A DNA stretch of 64,000 nt, taken from the NCBI GenBank assembly GCA_964606295.1, contig CAZSFR010000001.1:56504-120503 (forward strand), in the 5' to 3' direction. The position numbers and the translations under genes were made by a program. Origin of the DNA: an uncultured Candidatus Saccharibacteria bacterium. Its GTDB lineage: Bacteria > Patescibacteriota > Minisyncoccia > Phycocordibacterales > UBA9973. Below are positions 51,917-64,000 of the stretch, piece after piece. Each line of letters opens with the position of its first letter. The stretch's first letter is position 1. The notes below the pieces were generated by a model, which worked only from the letters and a program-made list of their open reading frames with translations, did no database searches and was not told where the DNA came from.

Positions 51917-53677
51917 CTACTTTATCTTCTTATCAACATCATCGATTTCCTTTTCTATGATGTTTCCTGCTACGGACAGATCATTTCTCAATTTTGTTAG
52001 GAATGCTTGCTCATGTACTGAAAGAGGTTCTCCTGCTCTTACTTTTTTCAAGATTTCAATCTCATCTACTACTTCTTGATCAATAATCTTCATAGATTGA
52101 GCTGTAACTTCTTTTGCTTGCCCAACTTGAATGTGTAGCATTTTTTTATATTTTCTCCATCCTCTCAGTATAAGAATCCCAATCACAAATAAAAGTAGCA
52201 CTGCAATCAGTATTGGTATAATCGGTAGTATAATCCTCAAAGCCATATTCATAAATTTACCGAACACTCCTGGTAACACGGAGACGGAATAACTTTCTGT
52301 GAGAGTACTCTCAGCTCCGTTGTCCAAACGTGCTTTTGCAACAAAGTGATACTCACCGACTTTCCAGGCAGTTTTCATTGTGAAGTCGAAAGTACCATTC
52401 GGGTTGACTTTGACAATATTTTCATCACTTATTTTATTTTTACTGAATATTCTACCAATCCATGTTTCATTTTCCTTTTTGAAGTCAAATACTACATACG
52501 AATTTGCTATCGCAGTACCACTTGCTCTGAACACCGTGCCTCCATCAAGCTCTTGAGTGTAACTCAGTATAACCGGGACGCTAATTCCCTCGTATGTAAA
52601 ATAAACAACATTCACAATGTCATTTCCTGCATAATCATTGGCTCTTACAACCAACTGATGTTGGCCAAGAGAAAGCACCCCCGTGCTGTAAAGTGATTCT
52701 TCCGTTGTTTTCTGCCATATTACAGGATTCGAAGCATCTATACTTATTTCATAATTCTCTATACCAGACGTTGCATCAGTAGCGTTTAGTAAAAAATGTG
52801 TCGAGCCATCTTCGGGTTCTTTTTCGACTTTCGTAATGGTAAAATCACTTGGCTTCGTCTTATCGACATTAATTTTGAAATGCGTCGTCCCCCCCCAGCC
52901 GTAGCTATTTTTTAGTCTCAAGTGAAAGTACCACGTACCGTCTGTTATCTCTGCACTGGTATATGAAGAAGTTAATCCTTTGTCTTGCGTTGGAGTAGTT
53001 GTCGCATTTTTGTCGAGAACAAAGCTAACTGAGGTAGCATCAGTAGGGACTTGCCACTCAAACTGAGGCACAGATATCGCAAACCAGTCATTTGGGTCTG
53101 GGTGCGTTGGAGAGGTCACCAGAGGAGGTAGTGGAGAATTTGTTCCGGACATCGACGGTGTTGTGACTATTCCACCGCTTTGACCAATCGTGACAATAGA
53201 TTTTGGCAGTGAACCAGAGAGTATGTTGGTACCCTCCCCGTCGTTTGCCAGTATAGATGCTTGAGTCAATTCAAATGTAGCAATACCTGTACCTTCCGTC
53301 TTCCAACTAACTGTAAAAAGTTTGCCTCCAGTACCACTGAAACCAGGATTCAAAACCAATCCTTCAAATCTAACAGCCCCTGCTTCACTCGAAGGTTGTA
53401 TTGTCCAGAAATTTACAATGGTTCCGGATGTATTTATAGTTGGCGCACTCAACAAATTTGTTGGGTAATAGATACGTCCAGAAAAAGCATTTATGGCTTG
53501 ACTGGTACTGGATACTGAAACCGTCAATGTGATTGTCTCTCCTGTGTCTATGTTTGCTGTAGCAGGACTCACAGAGAATGTAGCTGCTTCAACGCCATGA
53601 AACGATACAGCAAAGAAGGCCGTTACAACAAGGAATTTCAATACAAATTGTTTGAAGTTTATAGAATAAAAATGCAT
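51917..53677 (-). CDS. Surface protein: signal peptide, N-terminal cohesin-like domain, Ig-like middle region, C-terminal TM anchor and cytoplasmic tail.
   Basis: ATFSVSPATANIDTGETITLTVSVSS…AINAFSGRIYYPTNLL…GKLFTVSWKTEGTGIATFEL follows the cohesin pattern. C-terminal TM LRIILPIIPILIAVLLLFVIGILIL. Confidence 0.5.
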   Translation of the reverse strand: MHFYSINFKQFVLKFLVVTAFFAVSFHGVEAATFSVSPATANIDTGETITLTVSVSSTSQAINAFSGRIYYPTNLLSAPTINTSGTIVNFWTIQPSSEAGAVRFEGLVLNPGFSGTGGKLFTVSWKTEGTGIATFELTQASILANDGEGTNILSGSLPKSIVTIGQSGGIVTTPSMSGTNSPLPPLVTSPTHPDPNDWFAISVPQFEWQVPTDATSVSFVLDKNATTTPTQDKGLTSSYTSAEITDGTWYFHLRLKNSYGWGGTTHFKINVDKTKPSDFTITKVEKEPEDGSTHFLLNATDATSGIENYEISIDASNPVIWQKTTEESLYSTGVLSLGQHQLVVRANDYAGNDIVNVVYFTYEGISVPVILSYTQELDGGTVFRASGTAIANSYVVFDFKKENETWIGRIFSKNKISDENIVKVNPNGTFDFTMKTAWKVGEYHFVAKARLDNGAESTLTESYSVSVLPGVFGKFMNMALRIILPIIPILIAVLLLFVIGILILRGWRKYKKMLHIQVGQAKEVTAQSMKIIDQEVVDEIEILKKVRAGEPLSVHEQAFLTKLRNDLSVAGNIIEKEIDDVDKKIK

Positions 53678-53689
53678 TTTAGAACTCTC

Positions 53690-54601
53690 TTATTGTACCT
53701 TTATTTTCTTAAATTTTCTAGGAACGAAGAAGATAACAAATGCAAAAATAGCAGTAACTATGAGAAGTGGTATCACCAAAATCGATACCGGAAAAAATTG
53801 CTCAGAATGTATTTGGGCTATACGTACGTTGCCAGCATTATCAATGGCCTTTACGCGTACTAGCGACCTCATAGATTGATCCTCTAGAAGATACGGGCTT
53901 TCTGCAACTTTCCAATCAGAATTGCCCTCCTTTACCTCAAAACGACTAATCCCAGACTCTTTGTCAGTTGTAGAAAATATCAAAAAATATTTTCCATCAA
54001 AAATGTATTGATTACTGGATATTTGTGGATAGAAAACCAAAGGTCTTTCAATGTCACTCGCGAAATTAGTACCGACTTCGCCCGTTTCGGAGGAAATCAC
54101 CCTAAATGGATATAGCAAAGTGGGAGCTTTGGTGCCAAGCCCATCATTAAAATACGCTTGCCCTGTTGTAAGGTACAACTCGGATGTAGAAATGGACTTT
54201 GTGGTAAAAATTGCAGAAAATAGTTTACCATCGAGATATGTCTGGTCTAGTGGGTTGATCGTGCCTCCAAATCCTCCAACCATTATCCCTGAAAATTTGA
54301 CACTCGATCCATTTGCTTTTGGTCTCTCAATCCACGAGGTAACAACAGAACTACCATCTCTAATACCAACCAACTCCAAGTGTTCATCGTCAAAAACCAA
54401 CTCTCCCTCGACTGCATTTATCAATTCTTCACTGGAATTTATAAAGACAGTGACTTCAAATTCAGCATTCGCTAGTACGGGGAATTTTTGATCTGATTGA
54501 AAGTAAATAGTCGCAGCATTAGCTTGCTTGTGTCCCAGAAAAAGCATGCTAAGAGTCACGAGGAGAATAAAAGTACATTTTTTTGAAAATAAATTGATCA
54601 T
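53690..54601 (-). CDS. Surface protein with an N-terminal cohesin-like domain and a C-terminal TM anchor.
   Basis: ATIYFQSDQKFPVLANAEFEVTVFINSSEELINAVEGELVFDDEHLELVGIRDGS… is a cohesin-like block. C-terminal TM plus KFKK tail. Confidence 0.5.
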   Translation of the reverse strand: MINLFSKKCTFILLVTLSMLFLGHKQANAATIYFQSDQKFPVLANAEFEVTVFINSSEELINAVEGELVFDDEHLELVGIRDGSSVVTSWIERPKANGSSVKFSGIMVGGFGGTINPLDQTYLDGKLFSAIFTTKSISTSELYLTTGQAYFNDGLGTKAPTLLYPFRVISSETGEVGTNFASDIERPLVFYPQISSNQYIFDGKYFLIFSTTDKESGISRFEVKEGNSDWKVAESPYLLEDQSMRSLVRVKAIDNAGNVRIAQIHSEQFFPVSILVIPLLIVTAIFAFVIFFVPRKFKKIKVQ

Positions 54602-54606
54602 ATGAT

Positions 54607-55545
54607 TTATCCAGTCCAGTAATATGCCAATATAGAGAAATCGACAAGCGTAATACGGCCATCTCCTGACAAATCTAGTTCAAGTGGCGCTCCCAATCTC
54701 CCGTACCAATACGCCAATATAGAAAAGTCTGTGATATTCACTCTGCAGTCTCCTGTGAAGTCTCCTTTTGGCGGACAACCTGAATTTAGAACAGTCTCAT
54801 TACCAACAGTAAATCCAACTATACTAGAATAAGATGTTACTTCTGCTCCGAGTGTTGACAACGACCTTGTGCTATGTGAGCCAAGTTCCAATACACCCGT
54901 ATTGAACCTATAGAGATATGCACCATAGTCGTCAGATGTCGTAGACAAAAAATACGGAACCAATGAATTAACATTGATAGTTATCGAAGCGTTTGGTGCA
55001 CTTTCCCCGAGTATAGTGATCGTTTCTCCTTTTGCAACAACAGTCTTATCGATAGATATAGTAGGGGCAATATAGATACCAGAAATAGTAGTCGATATAT
55101 TTTCTGTTACTACAATAGGAAATGTGAAGAGTGTTGACCTTCTCTCTTCACTATCCTCAGCCAAAACAGAAAACGTATACGAACCAGCTGGTAAATCAGA
55201 GATTGTTAGTGTAAATTTTGCATCAAGTCCAGCTGTAGTTTGTGCAATCTCAACTCCGTCTTGCAAAAATATTACTGCGGAGAAGGGATAAGCTCTGCCG
55301 GAGAACGTGACAGATGAATCTCCATCGTTCTGACCTCCTCCACCACCGCCCCCACCACCTCCTGCTCCTCCAGGATCGCCCACAGCAACAGTTGCAGTTA
55401 TGGTGACGTCTTCACTTACAGCACCCAACTCTCTTGGAGTTGAATCGTAAAAGATTCCTACTCCGAGAATGATAATTACAGATAAAATGCACCTGAATGA
55501 TTTATATAAATCATTCTTACTAAACTTTAGGAGTGGAAGTTTCAT
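54607..55545 (-). CDS. Secreted protein with a poly-Gly run (GGAGGGGGGGGGGQ), Ig-like domains and a C-terminal type-I-like dockerin (two Ca-binding repeats).
   Basis: C-terminus GDFTGDCRVNITDFSILAYWYG…DLSGDGRITLVDFSILAYYW is two D-x-x-G-D-x-x-V/I-N/T-x-x-D-F-x-x-L repeats. Confidence 0.55.
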   Translation of the reverse strand: MKLPLLKFSKNDLYKSFRCILSVIIILGVGIFYDSTPRELGAVSEDVTITATVAVGDPGGAGGGGGGGGGGQNDGDSSVTFSGRAYPFSAVIFLQDGVEIAQTTAGLDAKFTLTISDLPAGSYTFSVLAEDSEERRSTLFTFPIVVTENISTTISGIYIAPTISIDKTVVAKGETITILGESAPNASITINVNSLVPYFLSTTSDDYGAYLYRFNTGVLELGSHSTRSLSTLGAEVTSYSSIVGFTVGNETVLNSGCPPKGDFTGDCRVNITDFSILAYWYGRLGAPLELDLSGDGRITLVDFSILAYYWTG

Positions 55546-56566
55546 TCATTTCTTTCTTTAGCTCCTCCTTAATCTCAGAGCGCAATGACTCCTTCAAATT
55601 TCTTCGATAATGCGTCTTTGCACGCTTCATAATATTTATAAACAAGAACAATCCAACTACTATAACAATAAGAAGGTGCCAAGGCACTACAAAAAATCCA
55701 GTTTTTGCAGTTGATGTCTGGTCACTTTCAGCTCCGTACGCTAGCGATATATTTGCAGTATAGTATCCGAAAGCAAAATTCTTCCATTCATACACAACTT
55801 TTTTGAAAAATCCTAGATTTTCAATATTTGCAACATCACTTGATCCTCTGCTTGATTGCCAAGTAGCTTCAAATCTTCTTGTCTGTGATGGTAATACGTT
55901 ACCTTGAGCGGAGTTTGCAAGAACTTTTGCCCTCACAAAACCAAACATATGTCTGATGACTATATCTCCATCTGGCTTTATCCTATCTCCGCCTGAATTT
56001 TGGAATCTGTAATAAAAAGAAACCGGGAGTGCAGTAAAAAAATTCTTATTGTCAATTGTGCCGTATTCAATAATACCTCCTTCTTCATCTACATCTCCGT
56101 TTACACGGAGCAACACCAAAACACCAGTTTTTGCACCAATTGCTATAGATCCTTCCCCGCTAACTTCAGGATTATTTGTACCCCAAAATACTGCAGCGAA
56201 ATACCCACCAGGCTCAGCTATTTCTGGTATATCGATTGTGACTGGAACTATCTTACTTGTGCCAGGTGCAAGTATTACCATGGAGTCTGTTTGCATCCAT
56301 GTTCCCAGCCCATCTACAGGAGTTACGAAACTTGGACTTCCCGTCTCCCCTTGTGCTTCAAAGTTTGAGAATGAAGAGTAAAATGTTTGACTTGTGTCTC
56401 TATCGTTTATAAGTGTAATCTCACTTTCAATAGTAGCTCCAGGGTCTCCGCTTAATTCTATGAGAACTGGCGTAAGTGTCAGAGCGTGCGCTTTGCTGAC
56501 AAAACTAGATGAAAAAATTATGACTGAGCAAAGTATAACCGCTAGTGTTGTTATTTTTTTTTGCAT
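55520..56566 (-). CDS. Bitopic surface protein: signal peptide, about 260-aa beta-rich ectodomain, C-terminal TM, basic cytoplasmic tail. The architecture is reminiscent of DUF916/DUF3324 proteins from Gram-positive WxL/Csc surface loci.
   Basis: Signal MQKKITTLAVILCSVIIFSSSFVSKAHA, TM FFVVPWHLLIVIVVGLFLFINIM, tail KRAKTHYRRNLKE… The gene begins with an A9 homopolymer. Confidence 0.45.
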   Translation of the reverse strand: MQKKITTLAVILCSVIIFSSSFVSKAHALTLTPVLIELSGDPGATIESEITLINDRDTSQTFYSSFSNFEAQGETGSPSFVTPVDGLGTWMQTDSMVILAPGTSKIVPVTIDIPEIAEPGGYFAAVFWGTNNPEVSGEGSIAIGAKTGVLVLLRVNGDVDEEGGIIEYGTIDNKNFFTALPVSFYYRFQNSGGDRIKPDGDIVIRHMFGFVRAKVLANSAQGNVLPSQTRRFEATWQSSRGSSDVANIENLGFFKKVVYEWKNFAFGYYTANISLAYGAESDQTSTAKTGFFVVPWHLLIVIVVGLFLFINIMKRAKTHYRRNLKESLRSEIKEELKKEMNETSTPKV

Positions 56567-56579
56567 TATATTTTATGTA

Positions 56580-57677
56580 TTAGAAATTCCCCGTCGCTAT
56601 ATATGTAACATCTGTCGAGTATGAACCCGCTTCTGTTGTTGTCGCGATGTTTGCGATGTATTGAACGTCGATTGTTTCAGTTGCAGTAGCTATTGTTTCA
56701 GATGCGATGGTGGTTGTAGTGCCGGCAACAAACGCGTAGCTATTTGTTCCCGCAAGTTCGTATGCGGATGCTATCGTCACGTTACCTCCGTTATCGTCGA
56801 TACCTAGAGCAAACTGCTCTGATGCTGGGGTGCCGTCTGCGTCTGATGCAATAGTCGCTACGTTTATAGTGTTCGCTCCACTTGTGAGAGTGGCACCGAA
56901 GTATGTGATCGAGTATCCAGATGCAGCGTTTGTGGCAATAGTCATTTCGTGCGCCCCAGTTGTATCACCTGGTAGAACTCCTGTACCAGTTGCATCTGCT
57001 GTCGCATATCGTGCAGCGGTTGCATCGAGAGCTCCGAACCCTATCGCTACGTCAGATATTGTGAAAGTGATTGTTGGGCTCACCGTTGCAGTGATGTTGA
57101 CTGAGTCGTCTGCGATGATGTCGATAGCGATTGTTCCTGTGTCTCCGAATCCACCAGTGAACACGATAGTGTCGTCGTCATCAGCCGAACCGTTGGTTAC
57201 CGTACTCGCTGAACCTGTCGCACCAGTCGTCGCTGCTGTACCCCAGACAAGGCGCATACAGAATCCTGCTGTTAGGGTCTGATCTGTTTCTGGTGAAAGA
57301 GTAATTACATTACCCGTTACGTCCACTCCCCAGTCTGTAGCTGATGCAGTAGTAGCAACTACTTCATCTGTATATACAGCAGATGAACATGTTGCACTAT
57401 CTCCTAACTCGACGTCAAAATTGTTTACGTCTTCAGCTGCAAGAGTAAAGTCTGCACTGAAAGTAAGTATGATAGTATCACCTCCCACTTGGATACCTGT
57501 CGGGGTGGCAAATTGAACTGTTCCAGAACTGTTTGCTGTTGAAGCTTCTATTCTCCCTAGTGTTGCTGTCGCATTGGTCACCGAGGCAGCCATAGCCTTG
57601 CTTGGGAGCAGAGTTATAATTCCAGTTGCAGTGACGATAAATACAAAAACAAAAAGAGATGTTGCGAATTTTTTCAT
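56580..57677 (-). CDS. Secreted Thr/Ala/Gly-rich protein (365 aa), paralog A. Sec signal with A-M-A cleavage site. Conserved C-terminal ~170-aa domain ending in …SYSTDVTYIATGNF.
   Basis: Signal MKKFATSLFVFVFIVTATGIITLLPSKAMA|ASVT. The 3' 480 bp are identical to paralog B. Confidence 0.6.
   Translation of the reverse strand: MKKFATSLFVFVFIVTATGIITLLPSKAMAASVTNATATLGRIEASTANSSGTVQFATPTGIQVGGDTIILTFSADFTLAAEDVNNFDVELGDSATCSSAVYTDEVVATTASATDWGVDVTGNVITLSPETDQTLTAGFCMRLVWGTAATTGATGSASTVTNGSADDDDTIVFTGGFGDTGTIAIDIIADDSVNITATVSPTITFTISDVAIGFGALDATAARYATADATGTGVLPGDTTGAHEMTIATNAASGYSITYFGATLTSGANTINVATIASDADGTPASEQFALGIDDNGGNVTIASAYELAGTNSYAFVAGTTTTIASETIATATETIDVQYIANIATTTEAGSYSTDVTYIATGNF
56590..57070. 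repeat. About 480-bp segment 100 % identical to 57820-58300: the shared 3' halves of the two tandem paralog genes.
   Basis: Direct comparison of the two stretches. The plus-strand shadow ORFs 56830.. and 58060.. share identical first 77 residues. Confidence 0.8.
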
Positions 57678-57809: not shown

Positions 57810-58910
57810 TTAGAAATTACCAGTTGCTATATATGTAACATCTGTCGAGTATGAACCCGCTTCTGTTGTTGTCGCGATGTTTGCGATGTATTGAACGTCG
57901 ATTGTTTCAGTTGCAGTAGCTATTGTTTCAGATGCGATGGTGGTTGTAGTGCCGGCAACAAACGCGTAGCTATTTGTTCCCGCAAGTTCGTATGCGGATG
58001 CTATCGTCACGTTACCTCCGTTATCGTCGATACCTAGAGCAAACTGCTCTGATGCTGGGGTGCCGTCTGCGTCTGATGCAATAGTCGCTACGTTTATAGT
58101 GTTCGCTCCACTTGTGAGAGTGGCACCGAAGTATGTGATCGAGTATCCAGATGCAGCGTTTGTGGCAATAGTCATTTCGTGCGCCCCAGTTGTATCACCT
58201 GGTAGAACTCCTGTACCAGTTGCATCTGCTGTCGCATATCGTGCAGCGGTTGCATCGAGAGCTCCGAACCCTATCGCTACGTCAGATATAGAAAAGGTGA
58301 TTGTTGGGCTCACGGTTGCAGTGATGTTGACTGAGTCGTCCGTTATGATATCTATTGCGATAGTTCCTGTGTCTCCGAATCCACCAGTTATTGCAACGGA
58401 ATCATCATCATCTGCTCCACCGTTTGCCATAGTACTGGCTGAACCCGTACCTCCAGTTGTTGCAGCTGTACCCCAGACGAGACGCATACAGAATCCTGCA
58501 GTGAGGGTTTCGTCTGTGTCTGGCGAAAGAGTAAGGACATCCCCTGTGACATCTATTCCCCATTCCGTTCCAGAAGCATTAAGAGCAACTGTTTTATCGG
58601 TATAAACTGCAGTAGAGCACGTTGCACTGTCGCCGAGCTCTATATCAAAGTTTACCGCGGATTCTCCAACGAGTACGAAATCAGAACTAAAAGTAAGTAT
58701 GATTGTATCTGCGCCTCCTGTTTGAATGCCTGTCGGAGTCGCAAATTGAATAGTACCGGAATCGTTTGCACCTGTAGCTTCTATTCGTCCGAGTGTTGCA
58801 CTCGCGCTGGTCACCGAGGCAGCCATAGCCTTGCTTGGAAGCAAAGAAATAGCTCCGGTCGCTGTGACAATGAAGACAAGTACAAAAAGGGATGTTGCGA
58901 ATTTTTTCAT
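57810..58910 (-). CDS. Secreted Thr/Ala/Gly-rich protein (366 aa), paralog B. Tandem duplicate of paralog A with a diverged N-terminal half. Start is MKKFATSLFV at 58910.
   Basis: Same signal peptide and C-terminal domain as paralog A. Its upstream intergenic region is also related to that of paralog A. Confidence 0.6.
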   Translation of the reverse strand: MKKFATSLFVLVFIVTATGAISLLPSKAMAASVTSASATLGRIEATGANDSGTIQFATPTGIQTGGADTIILTFSSDFVLVGESAVNFDIELGDSATCSTAVYTDKTVALNASGTEWGIDVTGDVLTLSPDTDETLTAGFCMRLVWGTAATTGGTGSASTMANGGADDDDSVAITGGFGDTGTIAIDIITDDSVNITATVSPTITFSISDVAIGFGALDATAARYATADATGTGVLPGDTTGAHEMTIATNAASGYSITYFGATLTSGANTINVATIASDADGTPASEQFALGIDDNGGNVTIASAYELAGTNSYAFVAGTTTTIASETIATATETIDVQYIANIATTTEAGSYSTDVTYIATGNF

Positions 58911-59024
58911 AATCTTGATTAAGAGCACTTTCTCTATTAGTTTATGTATATTTATTATAGCACTTTTACAGAAAATCGTTATGCGGAACTTCTGTGGAAA
59001 GTTGATATGCATATCTCGCATTTA

Positions 59025-62000
59025 CTAAAAATTCCCCGTCATTATATATGTCAGATCTGTGGAGTATGTTCCAAATTCTGTGCCTGCCGCCATATTTGCA
59101 AGATACCGAATTGAATACGTAGTACTAAATCCATCTCCCTCTGTTTGAGTTGCAAAGGTATCGGCTGTAGTCGTGCCAGCATAGCCAAATCCTGCTCCAC
59201 TGTAAGTCGCATCAACTGCATCATAATAAGATACCCCAGAGAGGCTAGCACGGGCGCCGAATTGTTCGGTGCCTGTACTCGAAGCTGTATTTGTAGAGCC
59301 TATCTCATCTATTGTATCGCCTCCACTCGTCAAAGTATTTCCCGAAACTGTTATTGTATAACCTCCAGACGCACTCGTTGATCCGGTCATAGTATGCGCT
59401 TCTACTTCTGATGCGCTTCCCGTTGTATCGTCTGTCGCATACCTAGCAAGAGATGCGTCAAGTGATCCAAATCCAATAGTCGTATCAGATATCGCAAAAG
59501 AAATAGTTCTATCTTCTGGCTCAACCCACTGGATGCCTATCATCGCAAAGTCCCATTGGTTTACAGAATTACTAGCTGCGCCACCATCGACAGAAGTTCG
59601 AAGTCGATACCATGCCTCATCCCCTCCAGTGCTCACCAAATCTTCTGGATTTGTCATATAGCCGGCCATACCTCCAGAGGTATTTGTGGCCACTGTTATA
59701 TTGTCGGTATATACGAGGGCGGTAGTCGCCGACGCACCGAGTGCAATAAATCCTCCGATCGTAGCGGCAGCCGTGTTGTACCCCGAATAGTCCGCAATAC
59801 CGAGAGCAACTGTGCCGGCAACACCAGATAAAAATGAACTCGCAAAAAATATTCCTGTGATAGATCCATATGTTGGCTCTCCCATACTAAACTTCGTATG
59901 TGTTCCTGCCCCTTCTTCGTTGATTGTCGCGTCCATATCGACATCGAATGCATAGAAATCAAAAGCTGCGCCAGTCCCCCTGTTTGTAGATTCATTTTCA
60001 GTTGTTATCGTCCAAGCTGTTCCGTTATTTGTTGCACCTTCCAAGTTTACCGTACGCGTGGCAGTACAGTCATTTGTCGCAACTGTTCCAAACGATATAA
60101 AACACTTTGTTGCCCCATCATCAGAATTGGTTGTACCGAACATGAGATATGCCATGTCTATCTGTATCGCACCTGTGTCTGCTCCTGACGAGCGATAGAA
60201 TCGGAGCCTCGCTTCCCCTTCTGATACATAATCATCCATGGTGATGTTGTTTACCGCTCCAATACGGAACGTATCTGTCGTCGAACAAGATGCGATCTCA
60301 TTAATGATGTTCACCCACGCAGCTGTCGTAAAGTTATAAAGCGCCATTCTCACTTCCAGCGCAGTGCCTCCTACGGAACATGCAAATTCTGCGCGAGCAA
60401 GTATGGTATTCATACCAGGATACGTTTTTACATTTTTATACGATATATAACAATCGGGACCTCCAGTGGTACCGAGACACTGCAGGTCTATATTGTTCGA
60501 ACCCGCCTGCGTGACCGTATTTGCATTGGTGTAGTCGCCAGTAAAACTATTTGTAAGTGCTACAGCACCTGCTGGCTCATAGACTGGATTGATAACAGGA
60601 AAAATGCGCAGATAGTCAATCGCGAAGTTGCCCGCAGTTGTAGCGTTGGTCGTTGAATAATATCTAAAAAGGACACGCTTGTTCGCATCGGTTGTGACAA
60701 AATTGGTAAGTGGAGTGGAGATCGCTGTGTTTGAACCATTGGACCATTTGCCGTCATACACATTCCACGTATATGCTGTCGCTGTCGTTGGTGAAATAGT
60801 GGCGTCGCGTGAATTGAGTGTTCTCCACCCGCCTCCGGTGCAGTTTGCATCGGCCACATGGTCGACACTCGTCGTCGAAATCCAATCGCATATTTGTACC
60901 AACAGCACAGGTGCGGTCACGTCGGTGTCTATCTCTGACTGGACGATAATAGTATTCGCACCATTGAGCTTCACTCCATCGAGTTTTAGTTGGACATCAA
61001 TACCCGATGCTGTACCAGTAAGTTCCCAGTGTCTGTTGTCGTCTGCTGTTGTTCCTTTCCATGAACCGGTATTGGCACCGTTTGCTCCTGCTGCGATAAT
61101 ATTGTTTGCAGTAGTATCTGTTCCCGTAACGAGTGTTTGACCTGTAGGTATAAATGCATGGGTGACAGTTGGGTTGTAAGAATCCTCAACCCACTGTATC
61201 GATAGCATCACGAAATCCCACGCAGTTGTAGAGTTATCTGTCGTAGCACCTGAAGTAGATGTACGCAGGCGCATGTTCATAATGCCATCCACTGTATCGA
61301 CATAATTTTCTGGATTTAGTTGGAGTCCGTAGGCCAGTGCGCCCGTCGCAGACAGCGTATCTTGAAATGTTTGTGTCGTTGCGTTAACAGCAGAACCGAC
61401 ATCAGTCCAGCCACCAGTAATAGAAGTGAAACCAGAATAATCGTTAATACCATTTATCACTTGAGTTGTACCGATACTTCGAGATGTAGTACGACTAGCC
61501 CAATTGATACCAACAACTTGCGCATTTGCTGGCACGGTTATTGGTACTGATACATTTGCGGACACACCCTCTTCGGCTGTCACGTCTTGATCTGTGTCGA
61601 ACGGGTAAAATGAATTTGCTTCACCTGTTCCCATCGCTGCGGATTCGTCCTCGCCTGCGATATCGAACGACGTCGTAGATCCGTTTGTATCCATTCCGCG
61701 AGTATTCGTGCAGTTTGTCGCAGTTCCAGTTCCAAAAGAAATCTCACAGAGCGATGAGTCAGCGTTTACAGAGCCGAGCATTATGTACTGCCAGTCCAAT
61801 AGAATACCGTTGGTAATAGCAGAGGTACTTGCCCATCTGATACGAATCTCTCCATCTGAAATAAAGTCATTGAGAACAAATCCAGCATCCGAAACTGTGT
61901 TGTGTGCAATATAGTAACTCGTGTCCGTCGTTGAGCAGGTGATGTTCGCAGAGCCGAGTGCATCCCACGTTGACGTCGTGAAATCATAAATATAGGGCCT

Positions 62001-63032
62001 GATAGTTGGGGTACCGCTGTTGCAACTCACGGATGATGCGAGCATGATAGTGTTCATGCCAGTATATTGCTTCACATTTTTATATGACAAATAAAAATCA
62101 ACAACTTGAGAACTCGCGGCTACTCCCACACGGATGTTGTCGTTTGTGCCTACCGTCGTCACTGATGTAGCATTGTTTACCAGCGGAATCGAGTTTACAT
62201 ACACACCCACTTCTGCCCCGTCACCAGATACTTGATCGACATAATCCGCTGCATAATACACAGAATCTATATATGCAAATACGGTAAGGTAATCAATCGA
62301 TACAACAGATGTGGTATTTGTCGTTGAATAAAATCGGATTTTCAATTCACTGCTACTGTTTACAAAATTCGTAAGTGGAGTGTCGATAGGAGTGCCTGCA
62401 TCAGATGTTCCGTTAGAAAAAACACCATCGTATATTTGCCAGCGCAACTGGTCGTTTGCTGTATCTGTATACGCAACATCAGCATTGGCAGCTGTTTGTG
62501 TATTGATAGTACGCCATCCACCAGTTGTACAATTTGCATCTGCTACATTGTCGACGTTTGTCGAAGAAGTGAAGTCGCAGATCTGGAAAACCATACTAGG
62601 AACTGTCGCATCAAGGTCTATCTCAAGGCCTATATCTATTTTATTGGCACCATTTAGATTTACCCCTCCGACGGTCGTCACCAGTGAAATACCAGAGGCC
62701 GTAGAGGCAACAGTCCAATGAAAACTATCGTTACCTTGCATAGCTTGATATGAGCCGAGATTTGTACCTTCGACTGCTGCGATCGTCGCTGATGTCACTA
62801 TCTGTTCAGTACCCGTTTCCACAGTGGTAGCAGTAGGGAAAAATTGATACGTCGCAGCATCTGCTTTTGGGATATCTCGTACAATTTCTTTGCTCGAAGC
62901 AACACGAGAAAGTATTATCTCTGGAATACCACTGACTAAAAACAAAACTATCAAAACAAAAGATACAACTTTTTGAAATTCAATTGCACTTAGAGATTTC
63001 CTTATTTTATTTTTTAAAATTATAAAAAACAT
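59025..63032 (-). CDS. Giant (1335-aa) surface protein. It has an N-terminal signal/anchor, two ~500-aa internal tandem repeats with conserved Cys pairs, and a C-terminal ~170-aa domain homologous to paralogs A and B (…FGTYSTDLTYIMTGNF).
   Basis: Repeat blocks ICDFTSSTNVDNVADANCTTGGWRTIN / ICDWISTTSVDHVADANCTGGGWRTLN, LSYKNVKQYTGMNTIML / ISYKNVKTYPGMNTILA, WDFVMLSIQWVE / WDFAMIGIQWVE. Confidence 0.6.
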   Translation of the reverse strand: MFFIILKNKIRKSLSAIEFQKVVSFVLIVLFLVSGIPEIILSRVASSKEIVRDIPKADAATYQFFPTATTVETGTEQIVTSATIAAVEGTNLGSYQAMQGNDSFHWTVASTASGISLVTTVGGVNLNGANKIDIGLEIDLDATVPSMVFQICDFTSSTNVDNVADANCTTGGWRTINTQTAANADVAYTDTANDQLRWQIYDGVFSNGTSDAGTPIDTPLTNFVNSSSELKIRFYSTTNTTSVVSIDYLTVFAYIDSVYYAADYVDQVSGDGAEVGVYVNSIPLVNNATSVTTVGTNDNIRVGVAASSQVVDFYLSYKNVKQYTGMNTIMLASSVSCNSGTPTIRPYIYDFTTSTWDALGSANITCSTTDTSYYIAHNTVSDAGFVLNDFISDGEIRIRWASTSAITNGILLDWQYIMLGSVNADSSLCEISFGTGTATNCTNTRGMDTNGSTTSFDIAGEDESAAMGTGEANSFYPFDTDQDVTAEEGVSANVSVPITVPANAQVVGINWASRTTSRSIGTTQVINGINDYSGFTSITGGWTDVGSAVNATTQTFQDTLSATGALAYGLQLNPENYVDTVDGIMNMRLRTSTSGATTDNSTTAWDFVMLSIQWVEDSYNPTVTHAFIPTGQTLVTGTDTTANNIIAAGANGANTGSWKGTTADDNRHWELTGTASGIDVQLKLDGVKLNGANTIIVQSEIDTDVTAPVLLVQICDWISTTSVDHVADANCTGGGWRTLNSRDATISPTTATAYTWNVYDGKWSNGSNTAISTPLTNFVTTDANKRVLFRYYSTTNATTAGNFAIDYLRIFPVINPVYEPAGAVALTNSFTGDYTNANTVTQAGSNNIDLQCLGTTGGPDCYISYKNVKTYPGMNTILARAEFACSVGGTALEVRMALYNFTTAAWVNIINEIASCSTTDTFRIGAVNNITMDDYVSEGEARLRFYRSSGADTGAIQIDMAYLMFGTTNSDDGATKCFISFGTVATNDCTATRTVNLEGATNNGTAWTITTENESTNRGTGAAFDFYAFDVDMDATINEEGAGTHTKFSMGEPTYGSITGIFFASSFLSGVAGTVALGIADYSGYNTAAATIGGFIALGASATTALVYTDNITVATNTSGGMAGYMTNPEDLVSTGGDEAWYRLRTSVDGGAASNSVNQWDFAMIGIQWVEPEDRTISFAISDTTIGFGSLDASLARYATDDTTGSASEVEAHTMTGSTSASGGYTITVSGNTLTSGGDTIDEIGSTNTASSTGTEQFGARASLSGVSYYDAVDATYSGAGFGYAGTTTADTFATQTEGDGFSTTYSIRYLANMAAGTEFGTYSTDLTYIMTGNF

Positions 63033-63033
63033 T

Positions 63034-64000
63034 TTATTGTGTCAAAATATCTACGACTTCGAGTTGTTCATCATTTTTAATATCTTCATTGGCAGTAGTG
63101 TCAGTTTTCAATTGATTGAGCGCTTCTTCTTCCGCTATTTTCTCTTCGAGAGGGGTAACAATTTCAAGATTTGCTGGATCGATTGCAATCTCACTTACAT
63201 CTCCGTTTGGTTCCAAATATTTTACTTCAGATTCTAGAGAAGTACTAATACTTTGTGACGACATCCCTCCAGAAGCAGTATTGTATTGATTTATCGCAGT
63301 CTTATCTCGTGAAAGCCAGAAAATAATCGTGCCTGAAACATCAACAGGTGTTGCAATGTCTACAGTATCGCCTGATGCAACAAAATTCCATTCTAGTCCT
63401 TTTGCTCGTTCGGCTTGTATTTGTTCATCAGTATAGATTATAGGTATTACTCCAGGAACTATTTCTTCGGTAGTTGTAATAATAGGAATATTTTCATCGT
63501 CAAAATATTGTGTAGACTGCGGAATATTTTCATTTACAAAATTATTTATGATAATCACCCCTTCACCTGGTGTCGGCACAGAATCAAAATCAGACTGCGT
63601 ATTCTCTTCATTTATTTCTTGATCTTCAGAAGGAACTTCTTCATCAATATTCAAATCAAGTGACGATGATTCCGGATCTATATCAGTATTAGTATCAGTG
63701 TTGGCCTCAACCTCAGGCTCAGTAGAAGAATCCGAAGTGACACTGACTTCATCACCAGATGAGGACGAATCAGAAGTATCACCGCTCGTTTCAGTTGCTC
63801 CCTCTTCGGCATAGACTGGATGTAATCCAAATAATGATTTTATTTTATTTAAAACAGTCACTTCATTTGTCGAAGGTGTCACTATATCTTCTGTCACTGG
63901 AACCTCTTCTATGATTGGAGTAGGATCTTCTGTTATCGGATCCTCTTCTACGGCTGGGGCCGGATCTTCTGTCGTAACAGGAACATCTATCAAAATGTCT
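63034..64000 (-). CDS. Partial CDS (5' end beyond the window): extremely acidic, Thr/Glu/Asp/Pro-rich repetitive protein. Probably part of the same surface locus.
   Basis: The ORF continues in frame past position 64000. Sequence EDPAPAVEEDPITEDPTPIIEEVPVTED… is low complexity. Confidence 0.45.
   Translation of the reverse strand, partial: DILIDVPVTTEDPAPAVEEDPITEDPTPIIEEVPVTEDIVTPSTNEVTVLNKIKSLFGLHPVYAEEGATETSGDTSDSSSSGDEVSVTSDSSTEPEVEANTDTNTDIDPESSSLDLNIDEEVPSEDQEINEENTQSDFDSVPTPGEGVIIINNFVNENIPQSTQYFDDENIPIITTTEEIVPGVIPIIYTDEQIQAERAKGLEWNFVASGDTVDIATPVDVSGTIIFWLSRDKTAINQYNTASGGMSSQSISTSLESEVKYLEPNGDVSEIAIDPANLEIVTPLEEKIAEEEALNQLKTDTTANEDIKNDEQLEVVDILTQ

Follow-up and report, generated by a model that had tools for sequence, protein, structure and literature searches.

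What does a dockerin do in a bacterium belonging to the candidate phyla radiation (CPR), and what would it dock onto? The question is raised by one gene in a stretch of 64,000 nucleotides (nt) from an uncultured Candidatus Saccharibacteria bacterium (assembly GCA_964606295.1, contig CAZSFR010000001.1, positions 56,504 to 120,503; hereafter the window). Its product, here called DOCK, ends in a dockerin, and the gene is followed by two genes for membrane-anchored cohesins; the three genes lie on the same strand and close a Pam-type pilus operon at its 3' end. Overall, the data favor a reading in which DOCK terminates a Pam-type donor-strand-exchange pilus at its cell-proximal end and anchors it there, with its dockerin plugged into the membrane cohesins, and we assign this reading a probability of a little under 0.6. 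Cohesin-dockerin pairs outside cellulosomes are already known, and so is the Pam pilus, the subject of a 2026 preprint on Ca. Mycosynbacter amalyticus (bioRxiv 10.64898/2026.03.03.709456). A Pam pilin consists of a sandwich domain at the N-terminus, a linker strand that it donates and a truncated immunoglobulin (Ig)-like C-terminal domain, and PamR, with an N-terminal strand, two fibronectin type III (FnIII) domains and a membrane helix, is the predicted terminator and anchor; dockerin and cohesin are nowhere mentioned in that work (10.64898/2026.03.03.709456). Our search of the literature gave no report tying a dockerin or a cohesin to a donor-strand pilus or to CPR surface structures.

A dockerin at the C-terminus of DOCK

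From the N- to the C-terminus, DOCK has a signal peptide, a donor-like strand, a poly-Gly tract, two Ig/FnIII-like domains and a dockerin, as modeled with AlphaFold2 (AF2; Table 1). The dockerin was assessed by profile searches, residue conservation and structure prediction. The Pfam model Dockerin_1 (PF00404) matched residues 260–307 with E = 2.3e-4 and 21.7 bits (gathering cut-off 22.9 bits), and the top sequence match of DOCK in the PDB was a dockerin (2y3n_B, E = 0.008). PF00404 was matched at E ≤ 0.01 by 38 of the 40 aligned homologues (best 1.6e-7), and a search of the PDB with the family profile yielded dockerins for all top matches (2y3n_B, 2.4e-5; 5nrm_B, 1.5e-3). More than 615 homologues were found and, among the 120 listed, more than half have a precomputed PF00404 annotation. 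The module contains a tandem duplication of about 22 residues, each unit being a Ca-binding loop and then a helix; the AF2 helices that follow the loops span residues 271–280 and 300–311.

The initial annotation had called the region at nt 54610–54762, which corresponds to residues D262–G312, a canonical dockerin and had quoted a segment from each repeat. Both segments are present exactly, at D262-FTGDCRVNITDFSIL and D291-LSGDGRITLVDFSIL (in full, DFTGDCRVNITDFSIL and DLSGDGRITLVDFSIL). Both repeats have invariant or at least 90% conserved residues at positions 1, 5 and 12 of the Ca loops (D262/D266/D273 and D291/D295/D302), and at position 9 of the first loop N270 is 95% conserved in the DOCK family. 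Other positions depart from the type I pattern. At position 3, where 60–75% of the family has N, the window protein has T or S, and position 9 of repeat 2 is T. Positions 10–11 are I-T in repeat 1 and L-V in repeat 2 (family consensus L-V / x-V), against the Ser-Thr pair of Clostridium thermocellum type I dockerins. The module is also compact, with a repeat-to-repeat spacing of 29 residues. It is a genuine dockerin that lies outside the canonical type I specificity class, so that the first half of the original call stands and the word 'canonical' does not.

Two cysteines that flank the first Ca loop, C257 and C267 (nt 54739–54777), co-vary: both are present in 29 sequences, neither in 10 and one alone in 1. 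From this pattern, they probably form a disulfide that clamps the loop.

The two Ig/FnIII-like regions were predicted as beta-sandwiches with a predicted local distance difference test (pLDDT) score above 90. A Big_6 match in this part of DOCK (26.9 bits, cut-off 27.6) recurred in 40 of 40 family members, and Foldseek matched tandem Ig/FnIII adhesin modules. DOCK has no acceptor domain and no C-terminal transmembrane helix of its own, the latter being a trait of PamR; among its orthologues, 76 of 78 terminate in W[TNR]G without a membrane helix.

Two membrane-anchored cohesins next to DOCK

The product of the gene adjacent to DOCK (303 residues, the short cohesin) consists of a signal peptide, a cohesin at residues 29–175 (nt 54077–54517), a beta-sandwich at 181–270, a membrane helix at about 276–298 and a short basic tail. 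Its AF2 model, based on 49 homologues, had a pLDDT of 91.9 and comprised nine strands between residues 30 and 171, a second beta-sandwich at 193–264 and a C-terminal helix at 276–302. In a Foldseek search of the PDB, the top 33 matches were all cohesins with a probability of 1.00, led by 2w1n (4e-9), 2vo8 and 2xdh; against single-cohesin targets, the target-normalised template modelling score was mostly 0.6–0.75. The family profile reached the ScaB cohesin of Ruminococcus flavefaciens (5aoz, E = 0.0017), 9 of the 49 family members matched the Pfam cohesin model PF00963 (best 5.5e-7), and one homologue is named a cohesin by NCBI. Scans of the window proteins with Pfam and NCBIfam recognised neither of the two cohesins.

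The second protein (586 residues, the long cohesin) has an N-terminal cohesin at about 31–152 (nt 53222–53587), followed by Big_13/Ig-like domains (Big_13, 29.4 bits), a membrane helix and a cytoplasmic tail of about 75–90 residues. Its N-terminus is homologous to the short cohesin (BLASTP 2e-10; E = 2.2e-23 with the cohesin-domain profile), and its orthologue in locus L002 gave a weak PF00963 match.

For comparison, 83 related loci (1.22 Mb) were examined. A C-terminal hydrophobic membrane helix was present in 156 of the 165 cohesin proteins from these loci, with a median cytoplasmic tail of about 13 residues in the short and about 91 residues in the long cohesins. The tail of the long cohesin is charged, helical and conserved in length across the family; it could be a handle for intracellular interaction or signalling. 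Overall, both neighbors of DOCK are real membrane-anchored cohesins, which bears out the initial annotation where it described adjacent, membrane-anchored, cohesin-like proteins.

Conservation in the short cohesin peaks on strands 3, 5 and 6 and in the loop after strand 8 (NDGxGT). This pattern agrees with, and does not prove, dockerin binding on the 8-3-6-5 face. In the second beta-sandwich of the same protein FDGKYF, D213, G217, E225, SPYLLEDQ and KAxDxAGN are invariant; this domain also gave a match to an OmpL47-type barrel below the threshold (28.8 bits, against 40).

Poly-Gly tether, predicted donor strand and pilin-DOCK fusions

The tract between the donor-like strand and the first Ig-like domain, GGAGGGGGGGGGG, has 12 Gly in 13 residues and 10 in uninterrupted succession, which corrects an earlier count of 14 in a row. 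It is encoded by mixed codons (GGA, GGT, GGG and GGC), the longest mononucleotide run is 5, and Tandem Repeats Finder reported nothing at this site; the suggestion that the tract might be prone to slippage was thus not sustained. The pLDDT of the tract is below 50, and at least 6 consecutive Gly were found in 68 of 84 DOCK orthologues (median 10). The poly-Gly is a conserved flexible tether, in keeping with its first description as a flexible linker. In long-form DOCK orthologues, it starts exactly where the C-terminal domain of a pilin would be expected to start. With poly-Gly in the place of the acceptor domain, DOCK would therefore be an obligate chain terminator.

AF2 placed a lone strand at residues 48–53 of DOCK, within the sequence DVTITATV at the mature N-terminus. 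Translated in all six frames, the window contains three copies of the motif [VIL]x[VIL][ST]A[TQ]V, one in DOCK and one in the linker of each of two shaft pilins (as in DDSVNITATV), a count that is partly circular since the motif was derived from these same sequences. Its conservation across loci is independent evidence: in the related loci, 15 of 19 short-form DOCKs have it ahead of the poly-Gly and 22 of 40 pilins contain it, compared with 2 of 945 other genes.

Long-form DOCK orthologues (420–490 residues) provide a second connection to the pilins. Their first 160 or so residues are homologous to the N-terminal domain and linker of Pam pilins of 316–335 residues (BLASTP 1e-22 to 1e-53), and the homology ends exactly where the two part, the pilin going on into its acceptor domain and DOCK into its poly-Gly. 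By this comparison, the long forms are fusions of a pilin N-terminal domain and linker onto the poly-Gly/Ig/dockerin part.

The Pam pilus operon in the window

Three genes upstream of DOCK matched the NCBIfam model CPR_Pam_pilin_C (NF058581) above its cut-off of 55 bits. Two encode shaft pilins, tandem paralogues that are 89% identical overall and 100% identical over their last 158 or so residues. The start of the second is probably M38 (nt 58910) of an open reading frame (ORF) of 403 residues (57810..59021). The C-terminal identity includes a 300-nt DNA repeat at 99%, and in the N-terminal domains about 1 residue in 5 is different; the sequence pattern points to gene conversion of the acceptor domain or to diversification of the exposed one. 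The third gene encodes a 1335-residue protein, in which a motif scan did not find the donor-linker motif. An acceptor domain without a donor linker fits the expectation for a tip subunit.

A 348-residue protein with a C-terminal membrane helix is encoded directly upstream of DOCK, here and in all type-A loci. Neither Pfam, NCBIfam nor a search of PDB sequences with the family profile gave a significant match for it; a role as an anchored chaperone of the PamC/PamD type may be assigned on the basis of its operon position and by analogy with the Pam preprint. The best relevant PDB match of the chaperone-like family is a weak one to EfmWxLIP1, a membrane-anchored, WxL-interacting protein from the WxL operons of Enterococcus (E = 0.13), a similarity that hints at a link between Pam chaperones and DUF916-type proteins of Firmicutes. 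At the far end of the window (63034–63993, minus strand) lies the C-terminal part of a large acidic low-complexity protein that is cut by the window end. Orthologues of about 800–860 residues precede the giant pilin in loci L001 and L007, which indicates that the operon extends past the window end.

Table 1. Features of the DOCK locus; positions are those of the window, and the last column gives the evidence used.
Feature	Position (nt)	Strand	Evidence
Long cohesin protein, 586 aa	51917..53677	-	BLASTP, cohesin-domain profile, Big_13
Short cohesin protein, 303 aa	53690..54601	-	AF2, Foldseek, family profile
DOCK gene, 312 aa	54607..55545	-	ORF list; AF2 model (pLDDT 83.6)
Dockerin module, residues 260-312	54610..54768	-	Pfam, PDB profile, conservation, AF2 helices
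Dockerin repeat 1, residues 262-283	54697-54762	-	
Dockerin repeat 2, residues 291-312	54610-54675	-	
Two tandem Ig/FnIII-like domains, residues ~77-146 and ~150-248	54802..55317	-	Big_6, AF2, Foldseek
Poly-Gly tether, G59-G71, GGAGGGGGGGGGG	55333..55371	-	codons, pLDDT, orthologue conservation
Predicted donor strand, residues D46-V53 (DVTITATV), mature N-terminus	55387..55410	-	motif, AF2
348-aa protein with C-terminal membrane helix, candidate PamC/PamD-type anchored chaperone	55520..56566	-	position
Shaft pilin, 365 aa, linker DDSVNITATV and Pam C-terminal domain	56580..57677	-	NF058581, 70.4 bits
Second shaft pilin, ~366 aa	57810..58910	-	NF058581, 69.7 bits
1335-aa protein with Pam C-terminal (acceptor) domain, candidate tip adhesin	59025..63032	-	NF058581, 62.5 bits

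Conservation of the module across related loci

A search of the GTDB species genomes with patterns derived from the dockerin gave at least 522 confirmed matches; the 80 loci kept from it all belong to CPR lineages, some of the genomes being mislabelled. The cultivable Ca. Microsyncoccus archaeolyticus PMX.50 (L065) is among the carriers of the trio. In 77 of the 83 related loci, the gene after DOCK encodes a cohesin of about 300 residues, and the next gene encodes another, usually of about 580 residues (also 77 of 83); most of the remaining 6 loci are apparently cut by contig ends. The complete order of pilins, chaperone-like protein, DOCK, cohesin and cohesin recurs in genomes of Nomurabacteria and Paceibacteria. 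This near-perfect synteny argues for dockerin-cohesin pairing.

The window holds one dockerin and two cohesin domains. The profile of the DOCK-type dockerin matched DOCK orthologues and nothing else across the related loci; single-cohesin proteins numbered two in 66 loci and three in 11, and a multi-cohesin protein was found in none. When the dockerin (60 residues) was searched against 1.84 billion protein representatives, 311 matches at E ≤ 1e-10 were obtained. Nearly all of the best 150 carry one such module at the extreme C-terminus of a protein, or protein fragment, of 280–510 residues; the dozen or so exceptions are multi-repeat proteins with 32–50% identity. The hallmarks of a cellulosome (a multi-cohesin scaffoldin, many dockerin-bearing enzymes, enzyme domains) were absent from the window and from the related loci.

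DOCK occurs in three length classes. The short form accompanies Pam pilins. The mid form (L012, L034, L036, L046, L061-L063 and L065) has a Cys-rich CGDGxC...C insert before the poly-Gly, and its neighbors are pilin-like proteins that end in ...TITAS or ...VTASA. The long form (L009, L019, L026, L030, L042 and others) carries the fused pilin N-terminal domain and is accompanied by giant proteins of 850–2800 residues and a small membrane protein of about 130 residues. Iterated pilin and chaperone profiles failed to reach the long-form loci. Comparison of the small upstream protein in these loci (F3) with the pilin C-terminal domain revealed no relationship (hhalign probability 0.1), and type-B pilin-like C-termini matched that domain weakly (probability 46%, E = 2e-4).

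Two candidates were set aside. A 319-residue ORF in locus L038 (8714–9673) had the appearance of a natural, PamR-like, membrane-anchored DOCK; it is an exact join of two neighboring genes, the first 166 residues coming from DOCK and the last 153 from the adjacent chaperone-like gene, and is most likely an artefact of metagenome assembly. The essential 'dockerin' protein of Southlakia, SEML1_0315 (927 residues; PMC10633639), considered as a member of the same system, is encoded between a hydrolase gene and a tRNA gene without cohesin neighbors. We also observed that several metagenome-assembled genome records with the CPR operon bear the title 'uncultured Pseudomonadales', 'Gammaproteobacteria' or 'Saccharibacteria' (L004, L009, L018, L040, L048 and others); the taxonomy labels of these third-party annotation assemblies look unreliable.

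Proposed mechanism of anchoring

In the proposed model, the signal peptide of DOCK would be cleaved, after which the DVTITATV strand would enter the last pilin at its open, Ig-like C-terminal domain, as the linker strand of another pilin would. Because DOCK lacks an acceptor domain, polymerisation would end there. The poly-Gly tether and the two Ig-like spacers would lead to the Ca-binding dockerin at the C-terminus, which would plug non-covalently into the cohesin of the 303-residue and/or the 586-residue single-pass membrane protein and so fasten the pilus to the cytoplasmic membrane.

Several points weigh against this model. The dockerin-cohesin contact and the strand insertion are inferred from architecture and co-occurrence, and stoichiometry and order of assembly are likewise those that the model presumes. 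The two Pfam profiles that the initial annotation had named as a check divide on the window proteins: PF00404 finds the dockerin just under its threshold (by 1.2 bits), and PF00963 has no match in either cohesin at E ≤ 1. A Foldseek search with the whole DOCK model returned only generic tandem Ig/FnIII matches; since the Ig domains dominate, RbmA and the dockerins did not rank. The model does not account for the presence of two cohesin proteins. In the short cohesin, the second domain (181–270) is more conserved than the cohesin domain, which hints at another function. Finally, in about half of the related loci, those with long-form DOCK, sequence searches detected neither a Pam pilin nor a chaperone upstream, and a giant protein and a small membrane protein are found there instead; the DOCK-cohesin module may serve more than pili.

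A wider reading, which we offer tentatively and consider doubtful as it stands, is that DOCK and its two cohesins form a universal plug-and-socket base for the surface fibres of Patescibacteria, which have no outer membrane and no usher. The dockerin terminator would be common to at least three classes of fibre or giant adhesin, namely Pam pili, another, pilin-like class and the giants of 850–2800 residues, and would dock on a short 'static' cohesin or on the long one. The conserved tail of about 90 residues in the long cohesin could then report pilus load or host contact inward, and the symmetric two-repeat dockerin would be able to switch between the two sockets or to bridge them.

In principle, the dockerin-cohesin pair could form without DOCK being a pilus subunit, the complex then being an envelope-spanning strut or a part of the assembly platform, a substitute usher, that merely shares the operon with the pilins. 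The very high conservation of the second domain of the short cohesin and the tail of about 91 residues in the long one would suit roles beyond passive anchoring, and half of the loci have no detectable pilins. However, a strut or platform leaves aside the donor-strand motif at the mature N-terminus, which DOCK has in common with the pilin linkers, the long forms in which a pilin N-terminal domain and linker are literally fused to the poly-Gly/Ig/dockerin part, and the parallel in layout with PamR. We consider this explanation unlikely.

The initial annotation had envisaged a generic surface-display scaffold, in the manner of a miniature cellulosome, with the membrane cohesins as sockets for many dockerin-bearing cargos encoded across the genome. 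Both folds are genuine, the trio adjoins at least three kinds of upstream surface protein (Pam pilins, other pilin-like proteins and giants), and the view of this genome spans about 64 kb, all of which would be compatible with such a scaffold. Yet each locus has one dockerin, always on the same protein family; in the related loci the dockerin subtype is confined to DOCK orthologues, and nearly all of the best 150 representatives carry it at the C-terminus of DOCK-sized proteins; no multi-cohesin scaffoldin was found in the related loci; stoichiometry and synteny are fixed; and the context is a Pam pilus operon. The scaffold is thus very unlikely, and we do not retain it.

That the dockerin-like module is the tip of an adhesin that binds Ca, glycans or a host and no cohesin, with cohesin-fold neighbors unrelated to it in role, is highly improbable. 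Dockerin-like EF-hand modules do occur without cohesin partners in many genomes. Moreover, a dockerin-containing protein of Saccharibacteria was speculated by Wang et al. to target host glycans (PMC10633639); that protein, however, is a different one (927 residues, in another context). The strict adjacency of the cohesin genes in 77 of 83 loci argues against an adhesin tip, as does the distribution of anchors, which the cohesins have and DOCK does not. A chance resemblance without a functional dockerin, to which the shortfall of 1.2 bits might point, is effectively refuted by the family-level profile matches, the PDB-profile matches, the conservation and the predicted helices.

Comparison with known systems

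PamR is the closest parallel to DOCK under the terminator-anchor model. It is encoded in the pam operon with the Pam pilins and membrane-anchored chaperones, as DOCK is encoded in a Pam pilin operon with a candidate anchored chaperone. Both have an N-terminal strand predicted to enter the last pilin and two tandem FnIII/Ig-like domains, both lack an acceptor domain, and both would connect the pilus with the membrane. Unlike PamR, which has its own C-terminal membrane helix, DOCK ends in a dockerin, and the helices are supplied in trans by the cohesins; DOCK also differs by its conserved poly-Gly tether. Going by its layout, DOCK appears to be a functional counterpart of PamR in which a dockerin-cohesin joint has taken the place of the membrane helix.

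The type I pairs of cellulosomes (in C. thermocellum, for example, the Cel48S dockerin with CipA, and the anchoring cohesins OlpA and OlpC; 1ohz, 3ul4, 4dh2 and 2y3n) share the duplicated dockerin of Ca loop plus helix and the 9-strand beta-sandwich of the cohesin, and cellulosomal structures are among the best sequence and fold matches of DOCK and the cohesins. In this family, near-identical dockerin repeats suggest a dual binding mode. In contrast to cellulosomes, each system here has a single dockerin and lacks both enzymes and a multi-cohesin scaffoldin; a membrane helix, not surface-layer homology (SLH) domains or sortase, anchors the cohesins; the dockerin is shorter and has other residues at loop positions 10–11; and the window proteins score below the Pfam thresholds.

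Non-cellulosomal cohesin-dockerin modules are said to have been surveyed by Peer et al. in FEMS Microbiol Lett in 2009. The top three fold matches of the short cohesin are of this kind: the cohesin-FnIII part of GH84C (2w1n) and the cohesin of GH33 (2vo8), both from Clostridium perfringens, and a cohesin from Archaeoglobus fulgidus (2xdh). In 2w1n, as in the short cohesin, the cohesin is followed by a beta-sandwich, and all of these proteins are used outside cellulose degradation. They differ in that they belong to toxin or glycosidase complexes or have unknown roles, and none is known to be associated with donor-strand exchange or a pilus.

PapH of chaperone-usher pili and the sortase-anchored basal pilins of Gram-positive pili are likewise final subunits with the dedicated task of halting polymerisation and fixing the fibre to the cell. 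PapH keeps its groove and is held by the outer-membrane usher, and basal pilins are linked covalently to peptidoglycan by sortase; for DOCK, in contrast, the proposed joint is a non-covalent one to membrane proteins, in a bacterium without an outer membrane.

Implications

CPR bacteria (Patescibacteria) account for much of the diversity of bacteria and live attached to host cells, and how they build and hold their filaments is only now being worked out. The cohesins encoded in the window are missed by the Pfam and NCBIfam models. If the terminator-anchor model is true, three small soluble domains are singled out that lend themselves to direct interaction tests in vitro. The cohesin-dockerin pair would gain a function beyond polysaccharide degradation, that of a non-covalent, Ca-dependent and probably force-resistant pilus anchor. 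Given the at least 522 matches in species genomes, Pam-type systems would then reach well beyond Saccharimonadia and Microgenomatia, into lineages that include Paceibacterota, Nomurabacteria, Uhrbacteria, Magasanikbacteria and the archaeon-parasitising Ca. Microsyncoccus.

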